From: an uncultured Acidobacteriota bacterium
Lineage (GTDB): Bacteria > Acidobacteriota > Thermoanaerobaculia > Gp7-AA8
Direction: 5' to 3'
DNA: 64,000 nucleotides
Assembly: GCA_963821585.1 (NCBI GenBank)
Contig: CAWGEI010000005.1
Span: 782,627 to 846,626, forward strand
Shown here in pieces: positions 2,279 to 63,387 of the stretch. The notes below the pieces were generated by a model, which worked only from the letters and a program-made list of their open reading frames with translations, had not been told where the DNA came from and ran no database searches. A program made the position numbers and the translations under genes. Within the stretch, counting starts at the first letter, position 1. Each line of letters starts with the position of its first letter.

Positions 2279-3855
2279 AACGCGCGCTGCTCGTCCTGCT
2301 GCTCGCCCTCGGTGCCTTTGCGCAGGAAGCGCCTCCGCCAGAACCGGCGCCCGCGCCGAACGTGGACGAGGAATTCACGAAGACCGTCTTCTTCGGCAAG
2401 AAGTTCGCCGACCTCGGCGAGTACGCCTCGGCGCAGGAGCAGTACGCCAAGGCCGAGGCGCTCAAGCCCGACCATCCCGCGGTGCTCTACAACCTCGCCG
2501 TCGTGCTCGCGCGCGCCGGGCGGTACTCCGACGCGCAGGTCAAGGTCGACCGCTACCTGCGGCTCTTTCCGGAAGGAGAAGAAAAGGCGAACGTCGCCCG
2601 GCTGCAGCTCGAGCTCCAGTTCCAGAGTGAGCTGCAGAAGAAACGTCAGGCCGACCAGGAGTACGCGGACCTCTTCAACCGTGCGAAGTTCACCTACACG
2701 CGCGGAGAGCTCGACGAGGCGCTGAAGCTGTTCCGCCGCGCGGAGCAGGTGCGTCCGAACGACCCCGCGCCGGTCTATAACGAGGCCATCGTGCTCGAGA
2801 AGCAGGGCGAGCTCGTCGCGGCCATCGAGCGCTACCGCCGCTACTCCCAGCTGGAGGGCGACCTCGACGTGAAGGCCGGCATCGACGAGCGCGTGTTCAC
2901 GATGCAGCGCGAAGTCGAAGACATGCGCACGAAGATCGTCTGCTCGTTCTGCGGGCGCAAGCTCGACGCGAAGGCGATGTGGTGCGAGCGCTGCTGGCAC
3001 GGGCCGTACAGCCACTCCCAGCCGTGCGCCGACGGTGCGTCCGCGACGCGCGCGACGTTCTTCTCCGACCAGCGCTTCAACAAGAACGACGTCCTCCCGT
3101 GCCTCTGGAACCGCGAGTCGCTGCGCTACTCCGCCGCGCGCCAGCGCACCATTCAGGAGGCGCGCAAGGCCGAGGGGTGGACGTACCAGGGCGACGTGCT
3201 GCAGGGCAATCGCGAGATGCAGTACCACCAGGGACCGGAGTACCTCGAGAGGATCACCTCCACGACCGGCGGCGAGATCCTCGAATACCTCGCCCACTCC
3301 GCCGGCTCCTGGCTCCTCGACCGCGAAGACCTCGTCATCGACGCCACCCGCTACCTGACGCAGTACACCTACGACGGGGGCGGCCGCATCGTGCAGCAGC
3401 GCGTCGACTACCAGAACACCGCCGCCTGCAACCACCTCATCTCCATGACCGCCAACGCCACCTACGACGGCGACGCCCTCATGTCCATCAGCGTCAAAGG
3501 CGGCTACGAGGGGTACGTGCCCGAGGGCGCGCCGAAGACCGACTGGCAGGCCAATGTCGCCTACACCTACGACGACAAACGCCGCGTCACCAGCGAAGAG
3601 CTGACCGTCACGTCCCTGACCAAGACCTACACCCAGAAGCCCATCGACTCCCTCCGCGACGAGATCGGCCGCCTCTACCCCGGCATGCGCGTGAAGAAGC
3701 CCGTCGAGAGCATCCAGCGCAGCGGCGACTACTGCGCAACCAGCCTGTCCAACCTCATCGACTTACGCCCCTTCTACGCGCTGACGCCCAACCTCTCGAT
3801 GCAGCTGCCCAACGGGGTGACCAAGGCGGTCGTGACGTTCACCTACCCGCAGTGA
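2275..3855 (+). CDS. Secreted TPR protein with zinc-ribbon-like CxxC...CxxC and YD-like C-terminal repeats
   Basis: Signal peptide MKRALLVLLLALGAFAQE. TPR-like helices (AVLYNLAVVLARAGRYSDA, PVYNEAIVLEKQGE). CSFCGRKLDAKAMWCERCWHG. Repeats YTYDGGGRIV, ATYDGDAL, YTYDDKRRV. Confidence 0.6.
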   Translation: MKRALLVLLLALGAFAQEAPPPEPAPAPNVDEEFTKTVFFGKKFADLGEYASAQEQYAKAEALKPDHPAVLYNLAVVLARAGRYSDAQVKVDRYLRLFPEGEEKANVARLQLELQFQSELQKKRQADQEYADLFNRAKFTYTRGELDEALKLFRRAEQVRPNDPAPVYNEAIVLEKQGELVAAIERYRRYSQLEGDLDVKAGIDERVFTMQREVEDMRTKIVCSFCGRKLDAKAMWCERCWHGPYSHSQPCADGASATRATFFSDQRFNKNDVLPCLWNRESLRYSAARQRTIQEARKAEGWTYQGDVLQGNREMQYHQGPEYLERITSTTGGEILEYLAHSAGSWLLDREDLVIDATRYLTQYTYDGGGRIVQQRVDYQNTAACNHLISMTANATYDGDALMSISVKGGYEGYVPEGAPKTDWQANVAYTYDDKRRVTSEELTVTSLTKTYTQKPIDSLRDEIGRLYPGMRVKKPVESIQRSGDYCATSLSNLIDLRPFYALTPNLSMQLPNGVTKAVVTFTYPQ

Positions 3856-3869
3856 TTTGGAGTTGTCGT

Positions 3870-4075
3870 GGCGCGCGAAGGCGCTCTCCAAGCTAGCCCC
3901 GGGCGGACCGCCGCCCGGGGTAACGCGAGGACGCTCCCAACAACGCGGCCGCGAAGGCGGCCGCTCCAGGGCGTGTTTGTAGCGACCGCCTTCGCGGCCG
4001 CGTCGACTTTCGACTCCGCGTTCCCCGGGCGGCGGTCCGCCCGGGGCTAGCTTGGGAAAGCGCGCCTTCGCGCGC
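3870..4075. repeat. ~200-bp nested palindromic element (family C, copy 1)
   Basis: gcgcgcgaaggcgc...ccccgggcggaccgccgcccgggg...gcggccgcgaaggcggccgc is mirrored by gcgaccgccttcgcggccgc...ccccgggcggcggtccgcccgggg...gcgcgccttcgcgcgc. Confidence 0.85.
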
Positions 4076-5071: not shown

Positions 5072-5147
5072 CTGAGTCCTGAGTCCTCAGTCCTGAGTCC
5101 TGAGTCGGCCGGTGGGGCTCAGCACTCAGGACTCGGCACTCAGGACT
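5072..5147. repeat. tgagtcc-type heptamer-rich palindrome (family D)
   Basis: ctgagtcctgagtcctcagtcctgagtcctgagtc ... ctcagcactcaggactcggcactcaggact fills the czcD-purE spacer and overlaps the last purE codons. Confidence 0.8.
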
Positions 5148-8852: not shown

Positions 8853-8965
8853 CGAAGGCGCGCATTTCTCCTCACTTTGGCGAAGGCCGCGGCGCACCAC
8901 CGCTCACCCGGTGCGCCGCGGCTGGAGCTAAGCTTTTCACCTCCCGGACGTACGCTTGCGGATCT

Positions 8966-9164
8966 GCGCGCGAAGGCGCGCAGTCCAAATGTGGCCCCGG
9001 GCTTGTGCCCGGGGTTGACCGGTGCAGACGGTTTCGCGGGCGCGAAGGCGTCCGCTACAAACGTGCGCCTTGGAGCGGCCGCCTTCGCGGCCGCAATGCC
9101 CTGCGACCTCGCGTTCCCCGGGCACAAGCCCGGGGCCACAATTGGATTGCGCGCCTTCGCGCGC
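8966..9164. repeat. ~200-bp nested palindromic element (family C, copy 2)
   Basis: Same module order as 3870-4075 and 16122-16322 (gcgcgcgaaggcgcgc / ccccgggc-N-gcccgggg / gcggccgccttcgcggccgc / gcgcgccttcgcgcgc). Confidence 0.8.
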
Positions 9165-9219
9165 AGAGATGATTCGTGTGGCGCCAGCGACACCCGCGTG
9201 GCTCACCGCAAACGAATTC

Positions 9220-9250: not shown

Positions 9251-10897
9251 TCAGCGCCGGCGCTCCTTCAGGTACTCCGCCACCTCTTCCACGCCCTTCG
9301 TGTTGAAGATCTGCTTCGGCGACAGGCCGCCCTTGCGCGCGACCCACGTCCCGGTGATCACCGCGTTGTACTCGCTGACCGAGTGTGCGTCCGGGTGGAT
9401 GCTGAACATCACGCCCTTGTCCGCGGCCTTCCGCAGGTAGCGCCAGTCGACGTCGAGGCGGTTGGGGTTGCCGTTGATCTCGATCATCACGCCCCGCTCG
9501 GCGGCCTTGTCGAAGATGCGGTCGTAATCGATGCGGTAGCCCGCCCGGGACAGCAGCTTGCGCCCGGTGAGGTGGCCGAGGAAGGTGACGGTGGGGTCGT
9601 CCAGCGCGCGGAGGATGCGCTCGGTCATCTGGTCGAGGTCCATCTGGAACTGGGAGTGGACCGAGGCGACGACGAAGTCGAATTTGGCGAGGATCTTCGG
9701 GCCGTAGTCCATCGTCCCGTCGGGGAGGATGTCCGCTTCCGTGCCGCGGAAGACGTGCATCGGTTTCACGTCCTTCTCGTGCAGCGCGATGTCCGCCTGC
9801 TGCAACTTCAGCTTCTCCTCGGTCAGCCCGCCGGCGTAATACGCGACCTTGGAGTGATCAGAGATCCCGACGTACTCCCAGCCGCGCTGCGCGGCCGCGG
9901 AGAGCATCTCCTGCACGGTGTTGCGGCCGTCGGAGAACGTCGTGTGGACGTGGAACGTCCCGCGGAGCTGGTCGAGCTCGACGAGCTTCGTCCGCTTCCT
10001 GACCTTCAGATCTTCGGCGGTCTCGCGCCGCTCCGGCTCGACGAACGGGATGTCCGCCTTCTTGAACGCGTCTGCCTCGCTCGCGGCTTTGGCGATCTTG
10101 CCGAATCCCTCGACGAACTCCGCACTGCCCGTCGTGCGCAGCAGGGTCGAGCCGAATTCAGCCGGCGGGGTGAGGTGGAAGAAGATGTCGAGCTCGTCGC
10201 GGATCGTGCCCTTGTACGTCTGCGCGTCGACCTCGGAGAGCCCTGAGACCAAGCCCGCGAGCTTCCCGGCGACGACCGCGGGCTTCTTTGTGGAGACGAC
10301 GATGTTCACGTTGCGGATCACCTCGAGCCGCCGCCGCACGCTCCCCGACACCTCGGCGTCCTCGACTTCGTCGAAGTCCGCGAGCCGCTCGCGCAGGAGC
10401 TCGCCGGCCTCGAGCCCGATCGGCAGGAGGAACTGCGACTCGCGCATGCGCGCGAACTCGATGCCGGCGAGGATGACCTCCGCGGTCTTCGCGCCGAAGC
10501 CTTTCAGCTTCGCGAGCCGGCCGTCCTTCGCCGCGGCTTCCAACTCGTCTAACGACCCGACGCCGAGCTCGGCGTGCAGCTGGCCGATCTTCTTGATGCC
10601 GAGCTTCGGCACGCGCAGGAGCTCGAAGATGCCGGGCGGATACTGGCCGCGCAGCTCGGCGAGGTAGCGCGACTCGCCGGTCTGGACGATCTCCTCGATC
10701 ACCTGAGCGGTGGCCTTGCCGATGCCGGAGACGCTGGTGAGCGTCCCCGCCCCGGCCAGGGCGGCGATGTCCTCGTCGAGATTCTCGACGGCGCGCGCGG
10801 CCTTTTCGAACGCGCGGGCGCGGAAGGGTTGCGGGTCACTGAGCTCGATGTAGCGCGAGATCTCGTCGAGCGTGCGGGCGATTTCGAACTTGTCCAT
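9251..10897 (-). CDS. polX: DNA polymerase/3'-5' exonuclease PolX (family X polymerase plus PHP domain)
   Basis: MDKFEIARTLDEISRYIEL..FRARAFEKAARAV helix-hairpin-helix N-terminus. PHP motifs GTFHVHTTFSDGRNT, ISDHS, HPDAHS. The upstream ORF extension to 11218 is not coding. Confidence 0.9.
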   Translation of the reverse strand: MDKFEIARTLDEISRYIELSDPQPFRARAFEKAARAVENLDEDIAALAGAGTLTSVSGIGKATAQVIEEIVQTGESRYLAELRGQYPPGIFELLRVPKLGIKKIGQLHAELGVGSLDELEAAAKDGRLAKLKGFGAKTAEVILAGIEFARMRESQFLLPIGLEAGELLRERLADFDEVEDAEVSGSVRRRLEVIRNVNIVVSTKKPAVVAGKLAGLVSGLSEVDAQTYKGTIRDELDIFFHLTPPAEFGSTLLRTTGSAEFVEGFGKIAKAASEADAFKKADIPFVEPERRETAEDLKVRKRTKLVELDQLRGTFHVHTTFSDGRNTVQEMLSAAAQRGWEYVGISDHSKVAYYAGGLTEEKLKLQQADIALHEKDVKPMHVFRGTEADILPDGTMDYGPKILAKFDFVVASVHSQFQMDLDQMTERILRALDDPTVTFLGHLTGRKLLSRAGYRIDYDRIFDKAAERGVMIEINGNPNRLDVDWRYLRKAADKGVMFSIHPDAHSVSEYNAVITGTWVARKGGLSPKQIFNTKGVEEVAEYLKERRR

Positions 10898-16077: not shown

Positions 16078-16372
16078 AAGTCCTGAGTGCTGAGTCCTGA
16101 GTCACGCCCGCCCCTGCTGCGTTGCGCGCGAAGGCGCGCTGTCCAATCTAGCCCCGGGCTTATGCCCGGGGTCAGCGAGGTTGTGTTTTCGACGCGGCCG
16201 CGAAGGCGGCCGCTCCAATACCCTGCCTGTAGCGGCCGCCTTCGCGGCCGCATCCCTCTGCCACACCGCGTTCCCCGGGCATGAGCCCGGGGCCACAATT
16301 GGACAGCGCGCCTTCGCGCGCAACCCTGTGGGTGGGTGTGACTCAGCACTCAGGACTCAGCACTCAGCACTG
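16078..16372. repeat. ~295-bp giant nested palindrome (family C copy 3 flanked by inverted family D arms)
   Basis: cctgagtgctgagtcctgagtcac...[C element 16122-16322]...gtgactcagcactcaggactcagcactcag occupies essentially the whole purM-purN spacer. Confidence 0.85.
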
Positions 16373-17431: not shown

Positions 17432-17442
17432 CCCAGAAGTCT

Positions 17443-17554
17443 ATCCTGAGCGAGCGAAGCGAGTCGAAGGATCAACTTAGCACCTGCGCGGCGCTGGCCT
17501 CATGCACCGTGAGTGCGAACTTGACCCTTCGACTCGCTTCGCTCGCTCAGGGTA
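17443..17554. repeat. Inverted-repeat element, cctgagcg/cgaagg family (family E, copy 1)
   Basis: atcctgagcgagcgaagcgagtcgaaggatc ... gacccttcgactcgcttcgctcgctcagggt, with a ~50-nt centre. Confidence 0.8.
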
Positions 17555-17564
17555 ACCTTGGGCC

Positions 17565-20923: not shown

Positions 20924-20985
20924 ACGTAGGGCGTGGCTTCAGCCCGCCTCCCCCGGGGCGGGCGGGCTGAAGCCACGCCCTACGT
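20924..20985. repeat. Hairpin repeat acgtagggcgYggcttcagcccgcc...ggcgggctgaagccRcgccctacgt (family A, copy 1)
   Basis: Near-perfect ~26-bp arms between the hslO stop and fabH start on the minus strand. Confidence 0.85.
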
Positions 20986-26448: not shown

Positions 26449-26576
26449 AAGCCCCGAGCGAAGTCGAGGGGCCAACTTAGCAGCAACGCTAACGCGTGCC
26501 GAAGCTCGGTGCATGTGCATCGCCCATCGGATCGCACGGCGCAGGTGCTAACTCGGCCCCTCGACTTCGCTCGGGG
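26449..26576. repeat. Inverted-repeat element, family E copy 2
   Basis: aagccccgagcgaagtcgaggggccaacttagcagcaacgc ... ggtgctaactcggcccctcgacttcgctcgggg, immediately after the speA stop. Confidence 0.85.
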
Positions 26577-27649: not shown

Positions 27650-27840
27650 CTGTCGCCCGCTACGCGGGCTGACTGTTGGGGTCGCACCGCGTTAACCCCG
27701 GCTGAAGCCGGGGTCGATTACCTTCTGCCCGCTACGCGGGCGGGGTTCGCCGCCGTAGGCGGCTCCAGAAAATAGACCCCGGCTTCAGCCGGGGTTAACG
27801 CGGGGCGACCCAACAGCCAGCCCGCGTAGCGGGCGACAGG
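27650..27840. repeat. ~190-bp nested palindrome (family F)
   Basis: ctgtcgcccgctacgcgggctgactgttggggtcgcaccgcgttaaccccggctgaagccggggtc ... gaccccggcttcagccggggttaacgcggggcgacccaacagccagcccgcgtagcgggcgacag. Confidence 0.85.
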
Positions 27841-28812: not shown

Positions 28813-28941
28813 GTACCGGCGAGCCGCCGGTGGACCGGCCGACTGGCAGTCGGCGCGCCTTTTCCCGTCCCTTCTGAACGAAAGCCTGAAGCATGTGGAG
28901 CGCCGGCCGCCGGCCGGCCGGTCCACCGGCGGCTCGCCGGT
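28813..28941. repeat. Inverted repeat (family G) between convergent genes
   Basis: taccggcgagccgccggtggaccggcc ... ggccggtccaccggcggctcgccggt. Confidence 0.7.
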
Positions 28942-32787: not shown

Positions 32788-33939
32788 ATGATCCTCGGGT
32801 CCATGACCACCGCGACCACCGACACCCCTATCACCCACACCGACCCCGTCAACGCGCAGATCCTTGCGGTGTCCGAGGATCGCATCCAGGGGTTTGTGCG
32901 CGACCCGTTCGGGGAGATCGCGCGGCTGGCGGGGATGGACGTCGAGCTGGTGATGGAGCGCATCCAGGCCATGCTGCGTGCCGGGACGATCCGGCGCGTG
33001 CGGCAGACGCTCATGGCCACGAACCTGGCGGAGGGCGCGCTCGTGGCGTGGCAGTATCCGAACGAGAAGCTCGATGCCGCGTTCGACTTCCTGTTCCAGC
33101 AGGATCCGTTCTCGGGGCACGTCGTCATCCGCTCGACGGATCCGGCGACGCCGGGGTCGAGCTATCGCCTCTGGACGACGGTGAAAGTCCCGCAGGGCTT
33201 CTCGGTCGAGAAGCATTGCACGTTTCTGGCGAAGCTCACCGGCGCGGAGCACTTCCGGGTCATGCCGGCCAAGCGGATCTTCGCGCTGGGCGTCGGACAC
33301 GTGCGCCGCAAGGGGATGGAGCCGGGCGAGAAGTCGGACGAGCTGGCGGAGGTCAAGGACACCGTCAAGGTCCAGCTGACGGACATCGAATGGCAGGTGC
33401 TGACGGCGCTGAAGCGCGAGCTCGAGCCCGAGGAAGTGCGCCGCGATCTGTGGGAGCGGCGCGCGGACGAAGCCGAGATGGTCGACGAGGTGTTCTATGC
33501 AGTCGCGGAGAACCTCAGCGCCCGCGGCGTCATCGGCCGCTTCTCGACGTTCCTCGAGCACGTGAAGCCGCTGCAGACGGGCGAGCGCGTGACGCGCTTC
33601 AACGCGCTCTTCCATTGGGCCGTTCCGCCGGGGCGGGAGATGGAGGCGGGACGCGAGGTTGGGCGCTTCCACATCCTCACGCACTGCTACTGGCGCGAGG
33701 GCGGCGCCGAGTTCCGCAACGTGAACATCATGGCCGTCGCGCACGGCACGGAGAAGGACGCCGTCCTCGCGCACAAGCGCGCCATCGACGAGCACCTGGA
33801 AAGCATCGGCATTCCGGTCTCCTACACGAACGTGTTCTGGGGCGGGCGCAGCGAGATCAAGCCGAGCGAGATCTCGCCGGCGGCGTATCGCGAGTGGTGT
33901 GCGTCTCGCGGCGTCGAAGCAGCCACCATGAAAGAGTGA
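32788..33939 (+). CDS. Two-module AsnC/Lrp-like protein resembling siroheme decarboxylase (NirDL/AhbAB family)
   Basis: Two repeats of wHTH plus ligand-like domain. The second half (GVIGRFSTFLEH...FNALFHWAVPP...ILTHCYWRE...NIMAVAHG) resembles the NirH/AhbB core pattern. Start is 32788 or 32803. Confidence 0.4.
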   Translation: MILGSMTTATTDTPITHTDPVNAQILAVSEDRIQGFVRDPFGEIARLAGMDVELVMERIQAMLRAGTIRRVRQTLMATNLAEGALVAWQYPNEKLDAAFDFLFQQDPFSGHVVIRSTDPATPGSSYRLWTTVKVPQGFSVEKHCTFLAKLTGAEHFRVMPAKRIFALGVGHVRRKGMEPGEKSDELAEVKDTVKVQLTDIEWQVLTALKRELEPEEVRRDLWERRADEAEMVDEVFYAVAENLSARGVIGRFSTFLEHVKPLQTGERVTRFNALFHWAVPPGREMEAGREVGRFHILTHCYWREGGAEFRNVNIMAVAHGTEKDAVLAHKRAIDEHLESIGIPVSYTNVFWGGRSEIKPSEISPAAYREWCASRGVEAATMKE

Positions 33940-35320
33940 TCGCGGCCAGCCACGGCACGACGGACAACGCGGAGCCGGGGCCGGTGAGCAGCTCGCCGAG
34001 GTTGAAGCTGGCCCATTCGGACTCGCGCGAGCCGGGCCTGTGCTTCTGGAACTGCAGCAGCTCGTCGGGCGCGATGCGGTTCGTCGACGTGTGGCCGGTG
34101 TAGAAGTCCGCCAGCCAGGGCGTCTTCCCGTCGCCGAGAGCGCGTCCCGTGAGCAGCGACGGCAGCGCGTAGCGTCCGATCGGATCGCGGAGGAGGTCGG
34201 GCGGCTGCGGATCGACGGCGGTGACGGCGAAGTTGAAGAAGAGCGAGACAGCGGCCAGGACGCGTGTGAGCAGCCGCGCGCGACCGTGCATCTCGATGAG
34301 GCCGAGGGCGAGGAGCGGCACGATCTGCAGGACGTACCGAGGGCCGGCGCTGTAGCCGCCGTGCCAGCCGTTGAAGGAAGCGTTGACGAGGAAGGTCAGC
34401 GCCGCGGCGACCGCGATCGTCCAGGCTTTCTGACGGACGATGCCGGTGACGGCGATCAGCATCAGCGGCGCGATGTAGAAGAGTCCGCGGTAGGGGGCGA
34501 AGGTGATGCCCCAGAGCGCGTCGAGCTTCGGAAGGGCGAAGACGCCCAGCCATCTGGCGTCGTCGAGGAAGGCGGGGTTGGTGGTGGCGATGGCGGTGCG
34601 GAAGGGCGAGCCGAAGGCGGCGTATTGGTAGGCCATCAGCGCGAGAGCGAAAGGCAGCCCGCCGAGGATGTACCGAACGTAGGGCGCGGCTTCAGCCCGC
34701 CCCCCGCGGGGAGGCGGGCTGAAGCCACGCCCTACATTGCCGAGCAGGAAAAGCACCGCCAGTGGCGCGCAGAGGTAGTTGATGAAGGTCGCCGCGCCGA
34801 TGGCGGCCCCCGCCAGCATCGGGCGTTTCCGCAGGTTCAGATACGCGAAGAGCACGAGCAGCGCTGCGGGGACGTGGGCGAAGAGCATCGTCGAGTAGGC
34901 GAAGAGCGGCGTGCCCAGGCCGGCGAGGAGGGCGATGTCCGGAGGCAGACCGCGGCTGCGCGCGGCCATCGCGAGCAGCACGCCGATCAGCGCACCGCTG
35001 ACGCCGCAGATCGCGACCGTGCAGAGGTACAGCGCGAGGTTCCATTCGATGGTGTTACGCGGCGCGCCGTGGATCGCGTAGAAGATCGCGTACGGCACCG
35101 CCGCCGCGAGCGCCAGTCCGGGCGCCTTGTTGGAGTACGTGTGCCCCGCGTGGAAGGAGACGTCCGCGGTGTTCGCGGCGTATTCGTCGATGTGGAGCTG
35201 CTGCCGCTCGACGAGCGCGCGGGTGAGGTCGAAGGTCGCGTTTTGATTGAAGCCGCTGCCGCCGAAAAAATACGCGTAGGAGAAGAGCAGCGTGAAGAAG
35301 ACGGCGACGCGTTCACGCAC
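33857..35320 (-). CDS. Polytopic membrane protein, GT-C-fold glycosyltransferase-like
   Basis: More than 10 hydrophobic helices. N-terminal loop HAGHTYSNKAPGLALAA is typical of ArnT/PMT-like enzymes. Contains hairpin repeat A2 in frame. The 3' end overlaps the convergent gene by 83 nt. Confidence 0.5.
   Translation of the reverse strand: MRERVAVFFTLLFSYAYFFGGSGFNQNATFDLTRALVERQQLHIDEYAANTADVSFHAGHTYSNKAPGLALAAAVPYAIFYAIHGAPRNTIEWNLALYLCTVAICGVSGALIGVLLAMAARSRGLPPDIALLAGLGTPLFAYSTMLFAHVPAALLVLFAYLNLRKRPMLAGAAIGAATFINYLCAPLAVLFLLGNVGRGFSPPPRGGRAEAAPYVRYILGGLPFALALMAYQYAAFGSPFRTAIATTNPAFLDDARWLGVFALPKLDALWGITFAPYRGLFYIAPLMLIAVTGIVRQKAWTIAVAAALTFLVNASFNGWHGGYSAGPRYVLQIVPLLALGLIEMHGRARLLTRVLAAVSLFFNFAVTAVDPQPPDLLRDPIGRYALPSLLTGRALGDGKTPWLADFYTGHTSTNRIAPDELLQFQKHRPGSRESEWASFNLGELLTGPGSALSVVPWLAAITLSWWLLRRRETHTTRDTPPARSRSA
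34677..34737. repeat. Family A hairpin repeat inside a CDS (copy 2)
   Basis: acgtagggcgcggcttcagcccgcc-ccccgcgggga-ggcgggctgaagccacgccctacat, translated as VGRGFSPPPRGGRAEAAPYV. Confidence 0.85.
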
Positions 35321-40881: not shown

Positions 40882-40996
40882 GGCGCAGGGCTGGAGCGGG
40901 TTGTGTGCCGGGGGTAAGTTGTTGATTTTACAACCGTGTACGCGGATGAGGTGTGCGCGGGCGGGATGCGGCGTCCCAAGGGCGGACAGTGGCAAC

Positions 40997-41035
40997 GTTA
41001 AGTGTGGGTGGGGTCTGACCCCACCCACACTTAAC
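40997..41035. repeat. Perfect 17-bp-stem palindrome in a divergent promoter region
   Basis: gttaagtgtgggtgggg-tctga-ccccacccacacttaac, between the permease start (40881) and arcA start (41062). Confidence 0.8.
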
Positions 41036-41061
41036 GGGGCAACCTATAGAATCCGCCCCGC

Positions 41062-54458: not shown

Positions 54459-54812
54459 TTACTTCTGGCGGCGCTCTTCGATGCGCGCGGCTTTGCCGCG
54501 GAGATCCCGGAGGTAGTAGAGCTTCGCGCGACGGACCCGGCCATGACGTTCCACCTCGATCTTGTCGATCGTCGGAGAATAGAGCGGGAACATACGCTCC
54601 ACACCAATGCCGCCCGAGACCTTCCGGACGGTGAACATCTGCCGTGCACCACCGCCGCGGCGCGAGATCACGACACCCTGGAAGATCTGGATGCGCTCTT
54701 TGTCGCCTTCTTTGACTTTGACGTGGACTTTGATCGTGTCGCCGGGAGAGAAAGACGGAAGGTCCGTCCGCTTCATCTCCGCCAACTCGACGAGCTTCAT
54801 GATTTCTGCCAT
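54459..54812 (-). CDS. rplS: 50S ribosomal protein L19
   Basis: [29 protein letters not shown]...[20 protein letters not shown]. Confidence 0.95.
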
Positions 54813-54862
54813 GACTAGTACTCCAGTGTGATTGAAAAAGCGCGTCAGTATAACGGCCCGCG

Positions 54863-55687
54863 CTAGAACTTGCCGAGCTTCCCGAGTATTTCCCGGGTTT
54901 CGTCGTCGAGCTCGGCGGTCTCCAGCAGGTCCGGCCGCTTCTCCAGCGTCGCCCGCAAGGCCTGCTCCTTCCGCCACTTGCGGATCTTCTCGTGATGCCC
55001 GGACAGGAGGATGTCGGGCACCCGCCGCCCCCGCAGCTCCTCGGGGCGCGTGTAGTGCGGATAGTCGAGCAGGCCGCGGAAGAACGAGTCTTCCTCGACC
55101 GAGCCGGTGTTCCCGACGACCCCGGGGATCAGCCGCCCGATGGCGTCGGCGATGAGCATGGCCGGCAGTTCGCCCCCGGAGACGACGAAGTCGCCGACCG
55201 AGATCTCGTCCGGGGTCAGAGCTTCGTGAACCCGGTGGTCGAAGCCCTCGTAACGCCCGCAAAGGAGGACGAGGTGATCTTTGGCGCTGAGCTCCCTGGC
55301 GACGCCCTGATCGAAGCGGCGGCCTTGGGGGGTGGTCATGACGAGGTGCGCCCTGTTGTCATCCCGAGCGTCGAGCGAGGGACCTGGGTGGGCGGTGCTC
55401 GAATCGTGTGCTTGGTGCCCCTCCCGCCCAGGTCCCTCGCTCGACGCTCGGGATGACAACAGGGCCTCCACGCACCGGAACACCGGCTCGCCCAGCATGA
55501 CCATGCCCGGTCCGCCGCCGTAGGCTTCGTCGTCCGTGGAGCGGTGTTTGTCGGTGGCGTAGTCGCGCAGGTCCCACACCCGGATGTCCAGCAGCCCCTG
55601 TTTGACGCCACGGGGGATGACGCCTTCCGCGAGAAAGCCGTCGAACATCCGCGGGAAGATGGTGACGAAATCAATCCGTAACGGCAT
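54863..55687 (-). CDS. trmD: tRNA (guanine37-N1)-methyltransferase carrying a 38-codon in-frame palindromic insertion
   Basis: [61 protein letters not shown]. There is extra sequence between VFRCVEAL and HLVMTTPQG. Confidence 0.9.
55351..55464. repeat. Family E-related inverted repeat inside trmD
   Basis: ccctgttgtcatcccgagcgtcgagcgagggacctggg...cccaggtccctcgctcgacgctcgggatgacaacaggg. 114 nt, which is 38 codons. Confidence 0.85.
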
Positions 55688-56204
55688 CGAGGTCGTCCAG
55701 TCCTTCCGGGAGCGCGACCACGATGCGCTTCGCTTCGAGATCGATCTCCGTGCAGATGTCGGCCGCGAACGGCAGCTCGAACTCTTTGCCGTCCGGGCGC
55801 TTCACGTTGAGGAGGATCCCGCCGCCGCCCTCGTAGACGTCGATCACCACGCCGCGCTCGCGCCCCTCGACGTCGACGATCGTGAGGCCGGGGAGGTCGT
55901 GGAGAAAGTACTCGTCCTCCTCCAGCTCGCGAGCGTCTTCCTCGGGGATCTCCAGCGTCCAGTTGTGCAGGAGCTGCACTTCCTCGGGTGTCTCGATGCC
56001 GGCGAATTTCACCAGCGCGCGGCCGGCGTGCGTGCGGACGTGCTCGATCTTCACCTCGCGTGTCTGCGCCTCGTCGGGCGAGACGAGTGTCACGGACGCG
56101 AAGTCGTCGAAGCGCTCCGGCGCGTCGCTCCACGGCTCGACGCTGGCCTCGCCGCGGACTCCGTGCGCTTTGCGGATGACGCCGACGGCGATGCGGCCGG
56201 ACAT
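55671..56204 (-). CDS. rimM: 16S rRNA processing protein RimM
   Basis: IAVGVIRKAHGVRGE N-terminus, PRC-barrel C-terminus, and position between the KH gene and trmD. Confidence 0.85.
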   Translation of the reverse strand: MSGRIAVGVIRKAHGVRGEASVEPWSDAPERFDDFASVTLVSPDEAQTREVKIEHVRTHAGRALVKFAGIETPEEVQLLHNWTLEIPEEDARELEEDEYFLHDLPGLTIVDVEGRERGVVIDVYEGGGGILLNVKRPDGKEFELPFAADICTEIDLEAKRIVVALPEGLDDLDAVTD

Positions 56205-60539: not shown

Positions 60540-61679
60540 GTGCCGGGCCATTCCTTTCTGCCTCTGCGGAGGTTGACGCCGGTGCCCGACCCCTTCGCGC
60601 TGCGCGTCACCCAGGTGCGCGAGGGCAATCCGCGGGGATCCTACGTCGTCTATCACGCGTGCGCCGCCCGCCGCGCCCGCAACAACCTCGCCCTCGACTT
60701 CGCGAAGTCCCTCGGCAAGCGCGTAATCATGGCCGAATGGCTCGACGAGCCGCACCTCTCGCCGCGCATCGAGGCATTCCTCCGCGCAGGCGCGGAACGG
60801 ACGAAACGCGAGGCAGACGTCGAGTATCACTTCGAGCCCGATCGGTCGATCCTCGACGACGCGAAGTTCGTCGTCACCGATGAGTTTCCGACGCTTCCCA
60901 CGCCACCGCACGCGACGCACCTGTTCGACGGCAACGGCATCCTCCCCATGCGCGCGATGGAGAAGGAGCAATACTCCGCCCGCTTCTTCCGCGACAAAGC
61001 CTTCAAGCTCTTCGAGCATTTCTGGAGTGCGGAGGCAACGCCTCCGCTTTGGAATCCGCCCGCCGACCTGCGCGGCACCGGCATCTCGCCCAGACTCCAC
61101 TTCGGCCACCTCGGCATCCGCGAAGCCGTCGCCGCCGTCCTCCACCGGGACGACGCCGAGGGCTTCCTCGAACAGGCCATCATCCGCAGAGAGCTCTCCT
61201 TCAACCTCTGCTTCTACAACCCCCGCTACGCTTCCCTCGACGCCCTCCCCAACTGGGCGAAACAGACCCTCGACAAACACCGGCGCGACCGCCGCAAGCC
61301 GTCCTATACCGATGAAGAGCTGGAGCGCGCCGGCACACACGACGACGTCTGGAACCTCGCCCAGCGCCAGCTCCTCGAGACCGGCGTGATCCACAACTAC
61401 CTGCGCATGCTCTGGGGCAAGAAGATCATCGAGTGGAGCGAGACCCCCGAGGAGGCGCATGCGGCAATGGTGCGGCTGCACGACGTTTATGCGCTTGACG
61501 GTCGCGACCCGAACACGCACGCCGGCATCCTCTGGTGCTTTGGCAAGCACGACCGGCCCTGGGCGCCGGAGCGGCCCATTTTCGGCACGATCCGCTGGAT
61601 GTCGTCGGAGCAGACGCGCAAGAAGTTGAGGCTTGGGAAGGCCACGTTAGCCCTGAGCGCAGCCGAAGGGCCGACTTAG
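60540..61679 (+). CDS. phr: Class II CPD photolyase-like protein, shortened and with a repeat-derived segment
   Basis: The C-terminal FAD domain is well conserved (ISPRLHFG, IIRRELSFN, THDDVWNLAQRQL, HNYLRMLWGKKIIEW, YALDGRDPN, HDRPW). It lacks ~70-80 aa before ISPRLHFG. GTG start. Confidence 0.7.
   Translation: MPGHSFLPLRRLTPVPDPFALRVTQVREGNPRGSYVVYHACAARRARNNLALDFAKSLGKRVIMAEWLDEPHLSPRIEAFLRAGAERTKREADVEYHFEPDRSILDDAKFVVTDEFPTLPTPPHATHLFDGNGILPMRAMEKEQYSARFFRDKAFKLFEHFWSAEATPPLWNPPADLRGTGISPRLHFGHLGIREAVAAVLHRDDAEGFLEQAIIRRELSFNLCFYNPRYASLDALPNWAKQTLDKHRRDRRKPSYTDEELERAGTHDDVWNLAQRQLLETGVIHNYLRMLWGKKIIEWSETPEEAHAAMVRLHDVYALDGRDPNTHAGILWCFGKHDRPWAPERPIFGTIRWMSSEQTRKKLRLGKATLALSAAEGPT
61024..61050. 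repeat. Family B hairpin inside the photolyase CDS
   Basis: ggagtgcggaggcaacgcctccgcttt, translated as SAEATPPLW. Confidence 0.8.
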
Positions 61680-61778
61680 CAGCAACGCCGCATGGGCACG
61701 AAGCGCGGTGCACGTGCAGTCGCCTCTGGGAGCACGCCGCGTTGGTGCTAACTCGGCCCTTCGGCTTCGCTCAGGGCT
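61648..61778. repeat. Inverted-repeat element, family E copy 3
   Basis: tagccctgagcgcagccgaagggccgacttagcagcaacgc ... gcgttggtgctaactcggcccttcggcttcgctcagggct. It supplies the last ~10 codons and the stop of the photolyase gene. Confidence 0.85.
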
Positions 61779-62691: not shown

Positions 62692-62711
62692 CTCCCTAAG
62701 CCCTTCTCTCT

Positions 62712-62843
62712 AAGCCCTGAGCGCAGTCGAAGGGCCAATTTAGCAGTAACGCTATACGACCCCACAGGCGACCGCGCGCGCATCGCGCTTCGTGCAAACG
62801 CCGCCGTTGGTGCTAAGCCGGCCCTTCGGCTTCGCTCAGGGCT
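62712..62843. repeat. Inverted-repeat element, family E copy 4
   Basis: aagccctgagcgcagtcgaagggccaatttagcagtaacgc ... gttggtgctaagccggcccttcggcttcgctcagggct. Same orientation as copy 3. Confidence 0.85.
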
Positions 62844-63387
62844 GAGACCCAACGATCACGTAGCCGGTGAAGAGGTCCGTCGTCAGCATCGTCCAGGAGC
62901 TGAACAGCCCTCCGTACGAATGCCCGACGAGCGTGCGTTCGCTGGTCGTCCGATACGTGCGGTCGATCAGCGGGATCAGTTCGTCGCCCAGGAACTGCCG
63001 GAACTTCGGGCCGCCGCCGGAGTGCTTCTGGTACTCCGGCCCGTAGCCGCCGTCGGGCGTGTGCGTCGGTGTGTAGTCGCGCGTGCGATTCACGCGGTAT
63101 TGGTCTGGACCGTCGTACGCGATGCTGACGACGATCGCCCACCGCAGGTGGTCGCGGTCGGCGAGGTGCTCCACCACATTGCGCGCGACGGCGAACGAGT
63201 AGTCCGCGTCCAGCGTGTAGATCACCGGATAGCGCTCCTGCGATTTCTCGTAATCGCGCGGCAGGCTGACGTACAGCTTGTACGCGACGCCGTTGGACTT
63301 CGCGGTGACGTGCAGCGTCGTCGTGCGCGGCAGCGCGACCGGCTCCGCCGTCAGGACAGTGGCGAAGACCAGTGCCAGGACGTTCAT
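62836..63387 (-). CDS. Esterase-D/IroE-like alpha/beta hydrolase, C-terminally truncated at repeat E4
   Basis: YPVIYTLDADY and the nucleophile elbow GHSYGGLF are present. The ORF stops ~25 codons later (GYVIVGSQP*) inside the repeat, before the expected Asp/His residues. Confidence 0.6.
   Translation of the reverse strand: MNVLALVFATVLTAEPVALPRTTTLHVTAKSNGVAYKLYVSLPRDYEKSQERYPVIYTLDADYSFAVARNVVEHLADRDHLRWAIVVSIAYDGPDQYRVNRTRDYTPTHTPDGGYGPEYQKHSGGGPKFRQFLGDELIPLIDRTYRTTSERTLVGHSYGGLFSSWTMLTTDLFTGYVIVGSQP

Follow-up and report, generated by a model that had tools for sequence, protein, structure and literature searches.

How does a long palindrome come to lie within the reading frame of an essential gene, and why at that particular point? 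The question is raised by a 64,000-nucleotide stretch of DNA from an uncultured Acidobacteriota bacterium of the Thermoanaerobaculia (contig CAWGEI010000005.1; 'the window' hereafter means this whole stretch), in which trmD, the gene for tRNA (guanine37-N1)-methyltransferase, contains an inverted repeat. We consider it likely that this repeat is a palindromic mobile element that inserted recently and in frame into a permissive loop of TrmD, where it is translated and tolerated, and that the loop is a hot spot for such insertions.

An in-frame inverted repeat within trmD

The gene and the parts of the repeat are as follows:

54863 to 55687, minus strand: trmD, tRNA (guanine37-N1)-methyltransferase, the host gene, 274 aa (open reading frame (ORF), Pfam PF01746 and PDB matches)
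55350 to 55465, no strand: full inverted repeat, 116 nt, with arms 55350-55403 and 55412-55465 and loop 55404-55411 (repeat search, RNA fold)
55357 to 55458, no strand: family-conserved core, 102 nt, TGTCATCCCGAGCGTCGAGCGAGGGACCTGGG...CCCAGGTCCCTCGCTCGACGCTCGGGATGACA (conserved termini across copies)
55351 to 55464, minus strand: 38 codons read through the element, TrmD residues 76-113, with a net gain of 34 residues over the empty allele

An earlier note on this DNA had described an inverted repeat in trmD with arms of about 40 bp. The repeat is present and its arms are longer than that: 54 nt each, 91% complementary and separated by an 8-nt spacer. Folded as RNA on the transcript strand, the 116 nt reached -110.7 kcal/mol versus -55.8 +/- 4.1 for dinucleotide shuffles (z = -13.35), and none of 200 shuffles folded as well. 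As the note had stated, the repeat lies wholly within the trmD ORF and preserves the reading frame, and the inserted peptide, rich in Ser, Arg, Gly, Asp and Pro, is the one it gave. The length that the element adds is divisible by three, and stop codons are absent from two of its three frames, which argues for read-through by the ribosome. Rfam gave no matches in the window at gathering thresholds; membership of an Rfam family was rejected, as the permissive mode returned only generic microRNA-hairpin matches far below threshold.

Comparison with relatives defined the junctions. The closest empty alleles read GTG GAA GCG ATC GGG GCA GGT CAC, and the window reads GTG GAG GCC CTG T[TGTCA..102 nt..TGACA]AC AGG GCG CAC. 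The net gain is thus 102 nt or 34 codons, so that the earlier figure of 38 codons holds for what is translated and not for what was gained. The outer 7 nt on each side (GCCCTGT and ACAGGGC) prolong the palindrome and resemble the GCCCTG ends of some other copies, for example the one at locus L110. Either the whole 116 nt may have arrived, the element then providing the Ala75 codon, or the flanks may have been remodelled later. The L110 copy (3845-3990) has an 11-base left flank, GGAGGCCCTGT, and a right CAGGGC in common with the window (55340-55475); GGAGGCCCTGT is probably the extended element end (GCCCTG) plus four bases shared by chance. At L110, where the host gene encodes a phosphotransferase system (PTS) EIIA-HPr-EI protein, the copy follows V-I-G-G codons (GTG ATC GGA GGC) that resemble the empty trmD site A-I-G-G-G.

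The host protein has what is expected of a SPOUT-type TrmD, namely the PF01746 domain together with the S-adenosylmethionine (AdoMet)-loop and catalytic motifs. PF01746 matched at 1.4e-57 in two separate stretches, and TrmD chains in the PDB matched at about 1e-70 in two aligned blocks (query residues 5-75 and 112-269). Only 7 residues separate the blocks flanking the insert point in Haemophilus influenzae TrmD, which bears out the short loop that the earlier note described for TrmD of the E. coli type. The motifs YGGGPGM, TPQG, GRYEG, GGE, GRLIPG and EEDSF are intact, and we infer from the sequence that the insert-bearing enzyme is still active.

In the AlphaFold model the insert is preceded by helix 66-83, which ends in ...EPVFRCVEA, and followed by the strand HLVMTTPQG, which aligns with ...VIYLSPQG of H. 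influenzae. In the H. influenzae TrmD structure (Ahn et al. 2003), the equivalent strand reportedly bears the first AdoMet-binding loop of the trefoil knot. Residues 82-110 were modelled by AlphaFold2 (monomer) as coil with a predicted local distance difference test (pLDDT) score of 26-31; the inserted segment is probably a disordered surface loop, as far as the model goes. The earlier note had suggested checking for a surface loop; the insert falls in a loop that the model gives as low-confidence coil and that varies in length across bacteria. Since the same loop spans 9 to 44 residues across other lineages and phyla, it is intrinsically permissive.

The loop is occupied repeatedly in relatives

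We compared the 120 closest TrmDs (72-90% identical). The loop was empty in 57 of them, reading I-G-[GA]-G, and enlarged at exactly the same point in the other 63. The enlarged loops comprised at least six unrelated sequence types:

the type found in the window, 2 proteins
VILSRVDGEGPP...GPSPSAGLRMT, 17 proteins
RAEGRGPRAEG...SPSALGPQPSAL, 21 proteins
SSGFLGSSEFLG...EELRGTPRNSEEP
GLPGHPVAR...GDRATGQPG
a heptamer-based type, FEVRGSN...SNLEP, and others besides

At the DNA level, every one of the twelve loci examined that had an enlargement of at least 11 codons contained a long hairpin. The segments with enlarged loops folded at -29 to -118 kcal/mol, with z between -3.8 and -9.6 for the seven scored against shuffles and about 0 for empty sites. 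A homologous protein insert without palindromic DNA, the pattern named by the earlier note as speaking against a palindromic element, was not seen among these inserts; one enlargement of 7 codons (locus L004) was non-palindromic. Some of the types are repeats in their own right: type A, which has the TGTCATCC terminus, is multi-copy (24 matches in 17 loci), and the repeat of the loop type represented by protein P0015 also recurs at other loci.

Occupation changes quickly. On a tree calculated with the loop masked, the insert states were scattered and required at least 47 parsimony changes. TrmD identity within a type barely exceeded that between types, and many pairs that are 96-98.7% identical differ in insert state. 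Outside the loop, the window's TrmD (P0001) is 97.5% identical to P0004, its closest TrmD, whose loop is empty (IGAG). The orthologue comparison suggested in the earlier note therefore yielded an empty site, and at this identity the insertion must be recent. The more distant P0002 (about 91% identical) bears the same family with different junctions; with P0004 empty, the same family thus entered the loop at least twice. Short footprints in the loop (IGDSVILTAGP, IGGGPSTSPGM and VRASAGDPSPSTGLRMTEA) show decay by internal deletion.

Two further kinds of loop were observed. Double or composite inserts of 54-68 residues occupy the same loop in the L036-type proteins P0036, P0072, P0075 and P0065; P0036 carries the RAEG...PSAL unit twice in tandem, and such composites suggest repeated hits or local duplication. 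In a metagenome relative (L005, 4196-4264), a trmD loop only two residues longer than the empty one includes the perfect palindrome GGGATTCGGGATCCCGAATCCC, of 22 nt. Native codons make up the left half of this palindrome, which looks like the product of template switching on the spot and not of an insertion.

A wider hot spot was considered and rejected: the long loops that the more distant TrmDs at L020, L028, L034, L059 and L078 have at this point do not form hairpins (z about 0), which limits the hairpin hot spot to the Thermoanaerobaculia-like clade.

The operon around trmD

The genes on either side of trmD are:

55671 to 56204, minus strand: rimM (ORF list), upstream of trmD and overlapping its start
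54459 to 54812, minus strand: rplS (ribosomal protein L19), part of ORF 54459..55262, directly downstream of trmD (synteny)

The window's trmD thus occupies its place in the canonical operon, as the order rpsP-KH-rimM-trmD-rplS-rnhB, labelled by Pfam in the syntenic loci L081, L082 and L187-L190, is the canonical one. This bears on the suspicion that the insert is an assembly artefact or belongs to a pseudogene, that is, a chimeric join or a dead trmD copy. The suspicion is not without cause, as short-read assemblies are often broken by repeats of this family, many copies of which lie at contig ends. However, the two halves of trmD on either side of the insert are contiguous, in frame and free of stop codons, with the motifs intact; the window holds one trmD only; the same family fills this loop in L081, which comes from an independent assembly, and dozens of independent assemblies have other hairpins there. 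We find an artefact barely credible.

Across 11 orthologous families of neighbouring genes (about 3000 codons aligned in 7-10 syntenic genomes), no hairpin insert was found in coding sequence, and 6 of the 10 syntenic loci had an occupied trmD loop. Hairpin runs were otherwise found only in intergenic spacers of the same operon, between KH and rimM in L189 (approximately 9386-9487) and between rimM and trmD in L082 (approximately 3924-4001). One of these two spacer hairpins translates as HPERREGPG and is thus of the TGTCATCC-like kind.

Such a distribution could mean that the hairpin itself is useful, for example as a site for RNase III or other processing or as a brake on TrmD output, within the rpsP-rimM-trmD-rplS transcript or its DNA. 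Hairpins unrelated in sequence converge on one site, and operon spacers of relatives bear hairpin repeats too. In E. coli, mRNA structure keeps the expression of trmD far below that of the neighbouring ribosomal-protein genes, which also counts in favour of a selected hairpin. However, we regard a selected RNA hairpin as less likely, and indeed as quite improbable, because about half of the close relatives (57 of 120) lack an insert, the decay is uncompensated (-84 kcal/mol in L081 versus -118 kcal/mol for the window segment, with uncompensated mismatches) and neither a terminator tail nor a promoter was found at the trmD element. The footprints show loss, and the same family occurs in unrelated genes and in intergenic DNA.

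The element belongs to a family of palindromic repeats

We scanned the 23-nt core TCCCGAGCGTCGAGSGAGGGACC against the GTDB genome collection. It was found in at least 104 stretches from at least eight Thermoanaerobaculia assemblies, and all matches with titles shown were metagenome-assembled genomes of Thermoanaerobaculia/Acidobacteriota. Allowing a 2-nt bulge in one arm, we obtained 73 unique complete copies of 95-118 nt. Their ends are sharp, with a T before GTCATCCCGAGCG and an A after CGCTCGGGATGAC: T precedes GTCATCC in 70 of the 73 copies and A follows GGATGAC in 69. Beyond these ends the flanks are unrelated, except for a CCT/AGG extension, which is weak, and for the longer ends of some subfamilies, and several copies have extended CCCT/AGGG ends. 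Nearly all arms occur paired. The window holds one copy of this family. The kinship with the intergenic family E repeats of the window that had been suggested earlier comes down to a short shared motif (CCYGAGCG...CGAGG): at 55% mean alignment identity the two are no common family, and membership in family E was rejected since its pattern GAGCG..YCGARGGR does not match the trmD element.

No direct repeats indicating a target-site duplication were found in the 73 flank pairs, and no k-mer was enriched in the 142 flanks, apart from AT-rich sequence and the subfamily end extensions. Clustering of 634 neighbouring ORFs revealed neither a transposase nor a recurrent neighbouring transposase, and in 104 loci of up to 8 kb there was no parent insertion sequence (IS) with the same terminal repeats. 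A probe for the transposase associated with repetitive extragenic palindromic (REP) sequences, RAYT (about 1.3 Mb of scattered loci), gave a single RAYT-like ORF (L101, 6012-6345), which is not flanked by these arms. Within the DNA sampled, a linked transposase was rejected as a candidate. In L090 (1448-1817) we observed a small ORF of the GIY-YIG type (...WCVYILSNHAHTTYVGSTNDLFRRLREH...); 64 nt upstream of its motif lies CCCCGAGCGAAGTCGAGGGG, an arm resembling those of family E. This arrangement was seen clearly once in 1.28 Mb and is a possible lead to a nuclease associated with the GAGCG...CGAGG repeats.

Could the palindrome instead have arisen on the spot when replication switched templates, through inverted duplication or quasi-palindrome correction? 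The 22-nt palindrome of L005, GGGATTCGGGATCCCGAATCCC, which derives partly from native codons, would fit such an origin, as would two substitutions in the window's flank relative to L191 (GCG AT to GCC CT), which extend the pairing to AGGGC. However, dozens of copies elsewhere, in unrelated surroundings and in other genomes, have arms nearly identical to those of the 102-nt core. The core was therefore not made locally, and any remodelling was limited to the outer few base pairs; a local origin of the element is very improbable. Our preferred reading is that the element represents one copy of a Thermoanaerobaculia-specific mobile repeat, palindromic and non-autonomous, with the hairpin architecture of a REP dimer or of a miniature transposable element with inverted repeats (MITE).

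Copies in frame within other genes

The family also inserts into coding sequence elsewhere. Ten of the 69 classifiable copies (about 14%) lie within long ORFs, with a coding-type GC content at third codon positions on both sides and no stop codon; copies are also found in intergenic DNA. The count of copies in coding sequences proposed in the earlier note thus favours its reading of a Rickettsia-like in-frame palindrome, which holds for a multi-copy repeat with conserved ends, in-frame copies and an empty orthologous site. Pfam matches to the host proteins back eight in-frame hosts:

PTS EIIA-HPr-EI fusion, interrupted between HPr and EI
Ser/Thr kinase, with the Pkinase match cut at profile position 153 of 263
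nonribosomal peptide synthetase, in the adenylation domain
YfhO proteins, two hosts
DUF6056, PMT_2 and DUF2339 proteins

In-frame copies are common because 55% of the element-by-frame combinations are free of stop codons, the sole recurrent stop being the TGA in GGA-TGA-CA. YfhO-like membrane proteins are the protein family that most often adjoins or hosts copies (nine loci: L119, L155, L184 and six more, two of them in frame), and membrane-protein loops seem over-represented among the hosts.

Why the trmD loop is a hot spot

Taken together, these observations are consistent with the following course of events. A non-autonomous repeat of about 100-116 nt with TGTC-tagged ends would be mobilised in trans by an enzyme that, because no target duplication is seen, probably acts on single-stranded or hairpin DNA. 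The insertion would fall in the codons for the short loop that joins helix 66-83 to the strand HLVMTTPQG, which leads into the AdoMet-binding trefoil knot. The ribosome would read through the insert, and TrmD would gain a loop of 34 residues and stay functional. The copy would then persist as a nearly neutral passenger until point mutations and internal deletions wore it down to a short footprint. The hot spot would mainly reflect a very high flux of palindromic repeats filtered by selection, the loop being among the few places in this essential gene where an insertion is survivable. We consider the hot spot best explained by such a flux into an essential gene where, in essence, a single site is permissive, and it is plausible that resident palindromes reinforce it by attracting further palindromic insertions.

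Several points weigh against insertion of a mobile repeat into a merely tolerant loop. At the junctions, 12 native bases (ATC GGG GCA GGT) were replaced by 114, which is not a clean cut-and-paste, and the boundary of the element is ambiguous (102 or 116 nt). The mobility of the family is read from its distribution, and about 0.8 Mb of flanking DNA contained neither a transposase nor a parent element with these ends. The AlphaFold2 model is mediocre, with a mean pLDDT of 58.8. Finally, the variable acidic linker of a neighbouring tetratricopeptide repeat (TPR) protein has no hairpin inserts, so that tolerance alone is not an obvious explanation.

Another idea is that the DNA of the trmD loop, or a palindrome already installed there, is an active insertion target. 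Such a landing pad would add to insertion and tolerance rather than replace them. At least six unrelated hairpin types lie in the same stretch of about 9 nt, the same family entered the loop in separate events in the window and in L081, where the junctions differ, and neighbouring genes are free of hairpin inserts. An end-like remnant, TGCAACAACG, adjoins the element in L081; copies elsewhere often adjoin other repeats or partial ends, and TGTCA/TGACA occurs in the flanks 9 times against 1.6 expected. REPs are established targets of insertion sequences (Tobes and Pareja 2006, cited in PMC3733652). On the other hand, the 142 flanks contain no conserved target motif, unrelated families would have to share one targeting principle, and the empty alleles uniformly read IG[GA]G, suggesting many insertions into a site free of palindromes. 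One form of the idea was that native GTCATGAC, which encodes V-M-T just downstream, mimics joined element ends. This decoy was rejected: GTCAT/ATGAC was not enriched near copies (10 versus 7.8 expected), and the closest empty alleles lack it, reading ATCATGAC at that place. We therefore see a targeted landing pad as a possible addition, though a doubtful one.

The broader proposition that the loop-coding stretch (GGN GGN GGN before HLVMTSP) is either a structure-directed landing pad or a selected hairpin site seems to us rather unlikely. If it were true, unrelated palindromes would have been recruited convergently to the trmD loop and protein tolerance would not be the whole story: either the insertion machinery homes to the loop DNA or to resident hairpins, or an mRNA stem-loop tunes the expression of TrmD and L19.

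The trmD loop is a natural experiment: at least six hairpin families have repeatedly entered an essential, knotted enzyme at a single codon-level site. Since empty, full and decayed alleles occur among near-identical relatives, insertion preference can be separated from selective tolerance. The loop also allows the turnover of repeats to be measured and the effect of large disordered loops beside a SPOUT knot on folding and activity to be tested. In practical terms, gene models in this clade are inflated and fragmented by such inserts, and short-read assemblies break at them.

Other palindromes in the window

The window contains at least 17 long palindromes of several families in its 64 kb, nearly all of them intergenic and often adjoining stop codons. 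They include those at

394-553, 3888-4055, 5075-5147, 8963-9167, 16121-16324 and 17437-17559
26452-26576, 27650-27839, 28815-28941, 40989-41043, 61649-61778 and 62709-62847

and belong to family E (CCYGAGCG..YCGARGG..AACTTAGCA), GCGCGCGAAGGCGCGC composites, heptamer-based hairpins and GTAG doublets. A second in-frame palindrome, unrelated to that in trmD, is a GTAG-headed REP doublet (AACGTAGGGCGCGGCTTCAGCCCGCC.../...GGCGGGCTGAAGCCACGCCCTACATT) at 34676-34738 within the ORF 33857..35320 (minus strand). It is translated as NVGRGFSPPPRGGRAEAAPYV in a membrane protein of 487 aa, and none of 40 homologues has it, including one that is 89% identical. The same GTAG REP family is intergenic at 20924, 43276 and 50545. 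In-frame palindromic inserts are thus found in 2 of about 50 genes of the window.

Comparison with known systems

Palindromic repeats that are translated within genes, or that form hairpins of similar size, are known from four systems. In the literature searched, neither a trmD hot spot nor elements of this kind in Acidobacteriota had been reported.

Bacterial MITEs, such as Correia/NEMIS, ERIC and Nezha (PMC10969869, PMC2229807), resemble the trmD element in being small and non-autonomous, with inverted ends, stable RNA hairpins and occasional in-frame fusions. However, a MITE has two short terminal repeats around a unique core, whereas our element is palindromic throughout. As neither a target-site duplication (73 flank pairs) nor, in the sampled loci, a parent IS with matching ends was found, it is not a classical MITE.

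REPINs, which are mobilised by RAYT transposases and described as extragenic (Bertels and Rainey 2011, PMC3116915), share with it two inverted units that form a hairpin of about 100 nt, dozens of copies per genome and the lack of a target duplication. Classical GTAG-headed doublets of the REPIN kind coexist in the window (20924, 34676, 43276 and 50545). They are a different family: the trmD element lacks the GTAG head and ends in TGTCATCC, and the sampled DNA held no RAYT flanked by its arms, the RAYT-like ORF of L101 being flanked otherwise. The element is not a GTAG REPIN.

The CGTC/TGTC-tagged REPs (Di Nocera et al. 2013, PMC3733652) come closer. They include two Rickettsia palindromic elements (RPE), RPE-4 and RPE-6, and their CGTC is often changed to TGTC. 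They form inverted dimers without a transposase and occur in frame within genes of Opitutus terrae, Thauera, Xanthomonas and others, so that equivalents of which the earlier note was not aware do exist outside Rickettsia, also in free-living bacteria of high GC. Different REPs at approximately the same recB site in two Xanthomonas species are the nearest precedent for a hot spot (PMC3733652). The trmD family likewise has a TGTC tag followed by AT (TGTC-AT-CCC...), with the termini T-GTC-AT-CCC in 70 of 73 copies; its inverted pairs form one long hairpin, and it has no recurrent neighbouring protein or transposase. The terminal peptides are ...RDD and ...GMT here versus ...RGND and ...RGMT in R. 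conorii. However, a single arm lacks the defining stem of 8-9 bp with a loop of 4-5 nt: it folds at -3.9 kcal/mol (z 0.16), with 4 bp, a tandem G-A (G-A/A-G), 2 bp and a 5-nt loop. For this reason we did not file the element in the CGTC/TGTC superfamily. Its arms are also longer (about 45-50 nt) and paired along their whole length, and that REP family has not been reported in Acidobacteriota.

The RPEs themselves (Ogata et al. 2000, 2002; reviewed in PMC10969869) offer the closest parallel in behaviour. Like them, the trmD family is a short palindromic multi-copy repeat (54-nt arms, at least 104 loci, 73 complete copies), a sizeable fraction of which lies in frame in unrelated, functional and often essential genes and is translated where the fold tolerates it. 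RPE hosts are AT-rich, obligately intracellular Rickettsia, whereas this host is a free-living Acidobacteriota of 66% GC. The repeat belongs to a different, GC-rich family of about 100-116 nt versus about 150 nt for RPEs, and homology to RPE-1 to RPE-10 was not found: only the terminal [C/T]GTCAT..CC resembles the CGTC-type RPE-4 and RPE-6 peptides (PMC3733652 supplement; peptide comparison). A further difference from RPEs is that one codon-level site has been entered repeatedly by several unrelated families with rapid turnover. The phenomenon is therefore functionally RPE-like, and the element is not an RPE by taxon or sequence. Read-through of selfish palindromes of the Rickettsia type is thereby extended to a poorly studied, free-living, high-GC phylum, in which it is common. 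In-frame REP-type repeats were already known; what this case adds is a recurrent, multi-family hot spot with fast turnover in an essential SPOUT methyltransferase.

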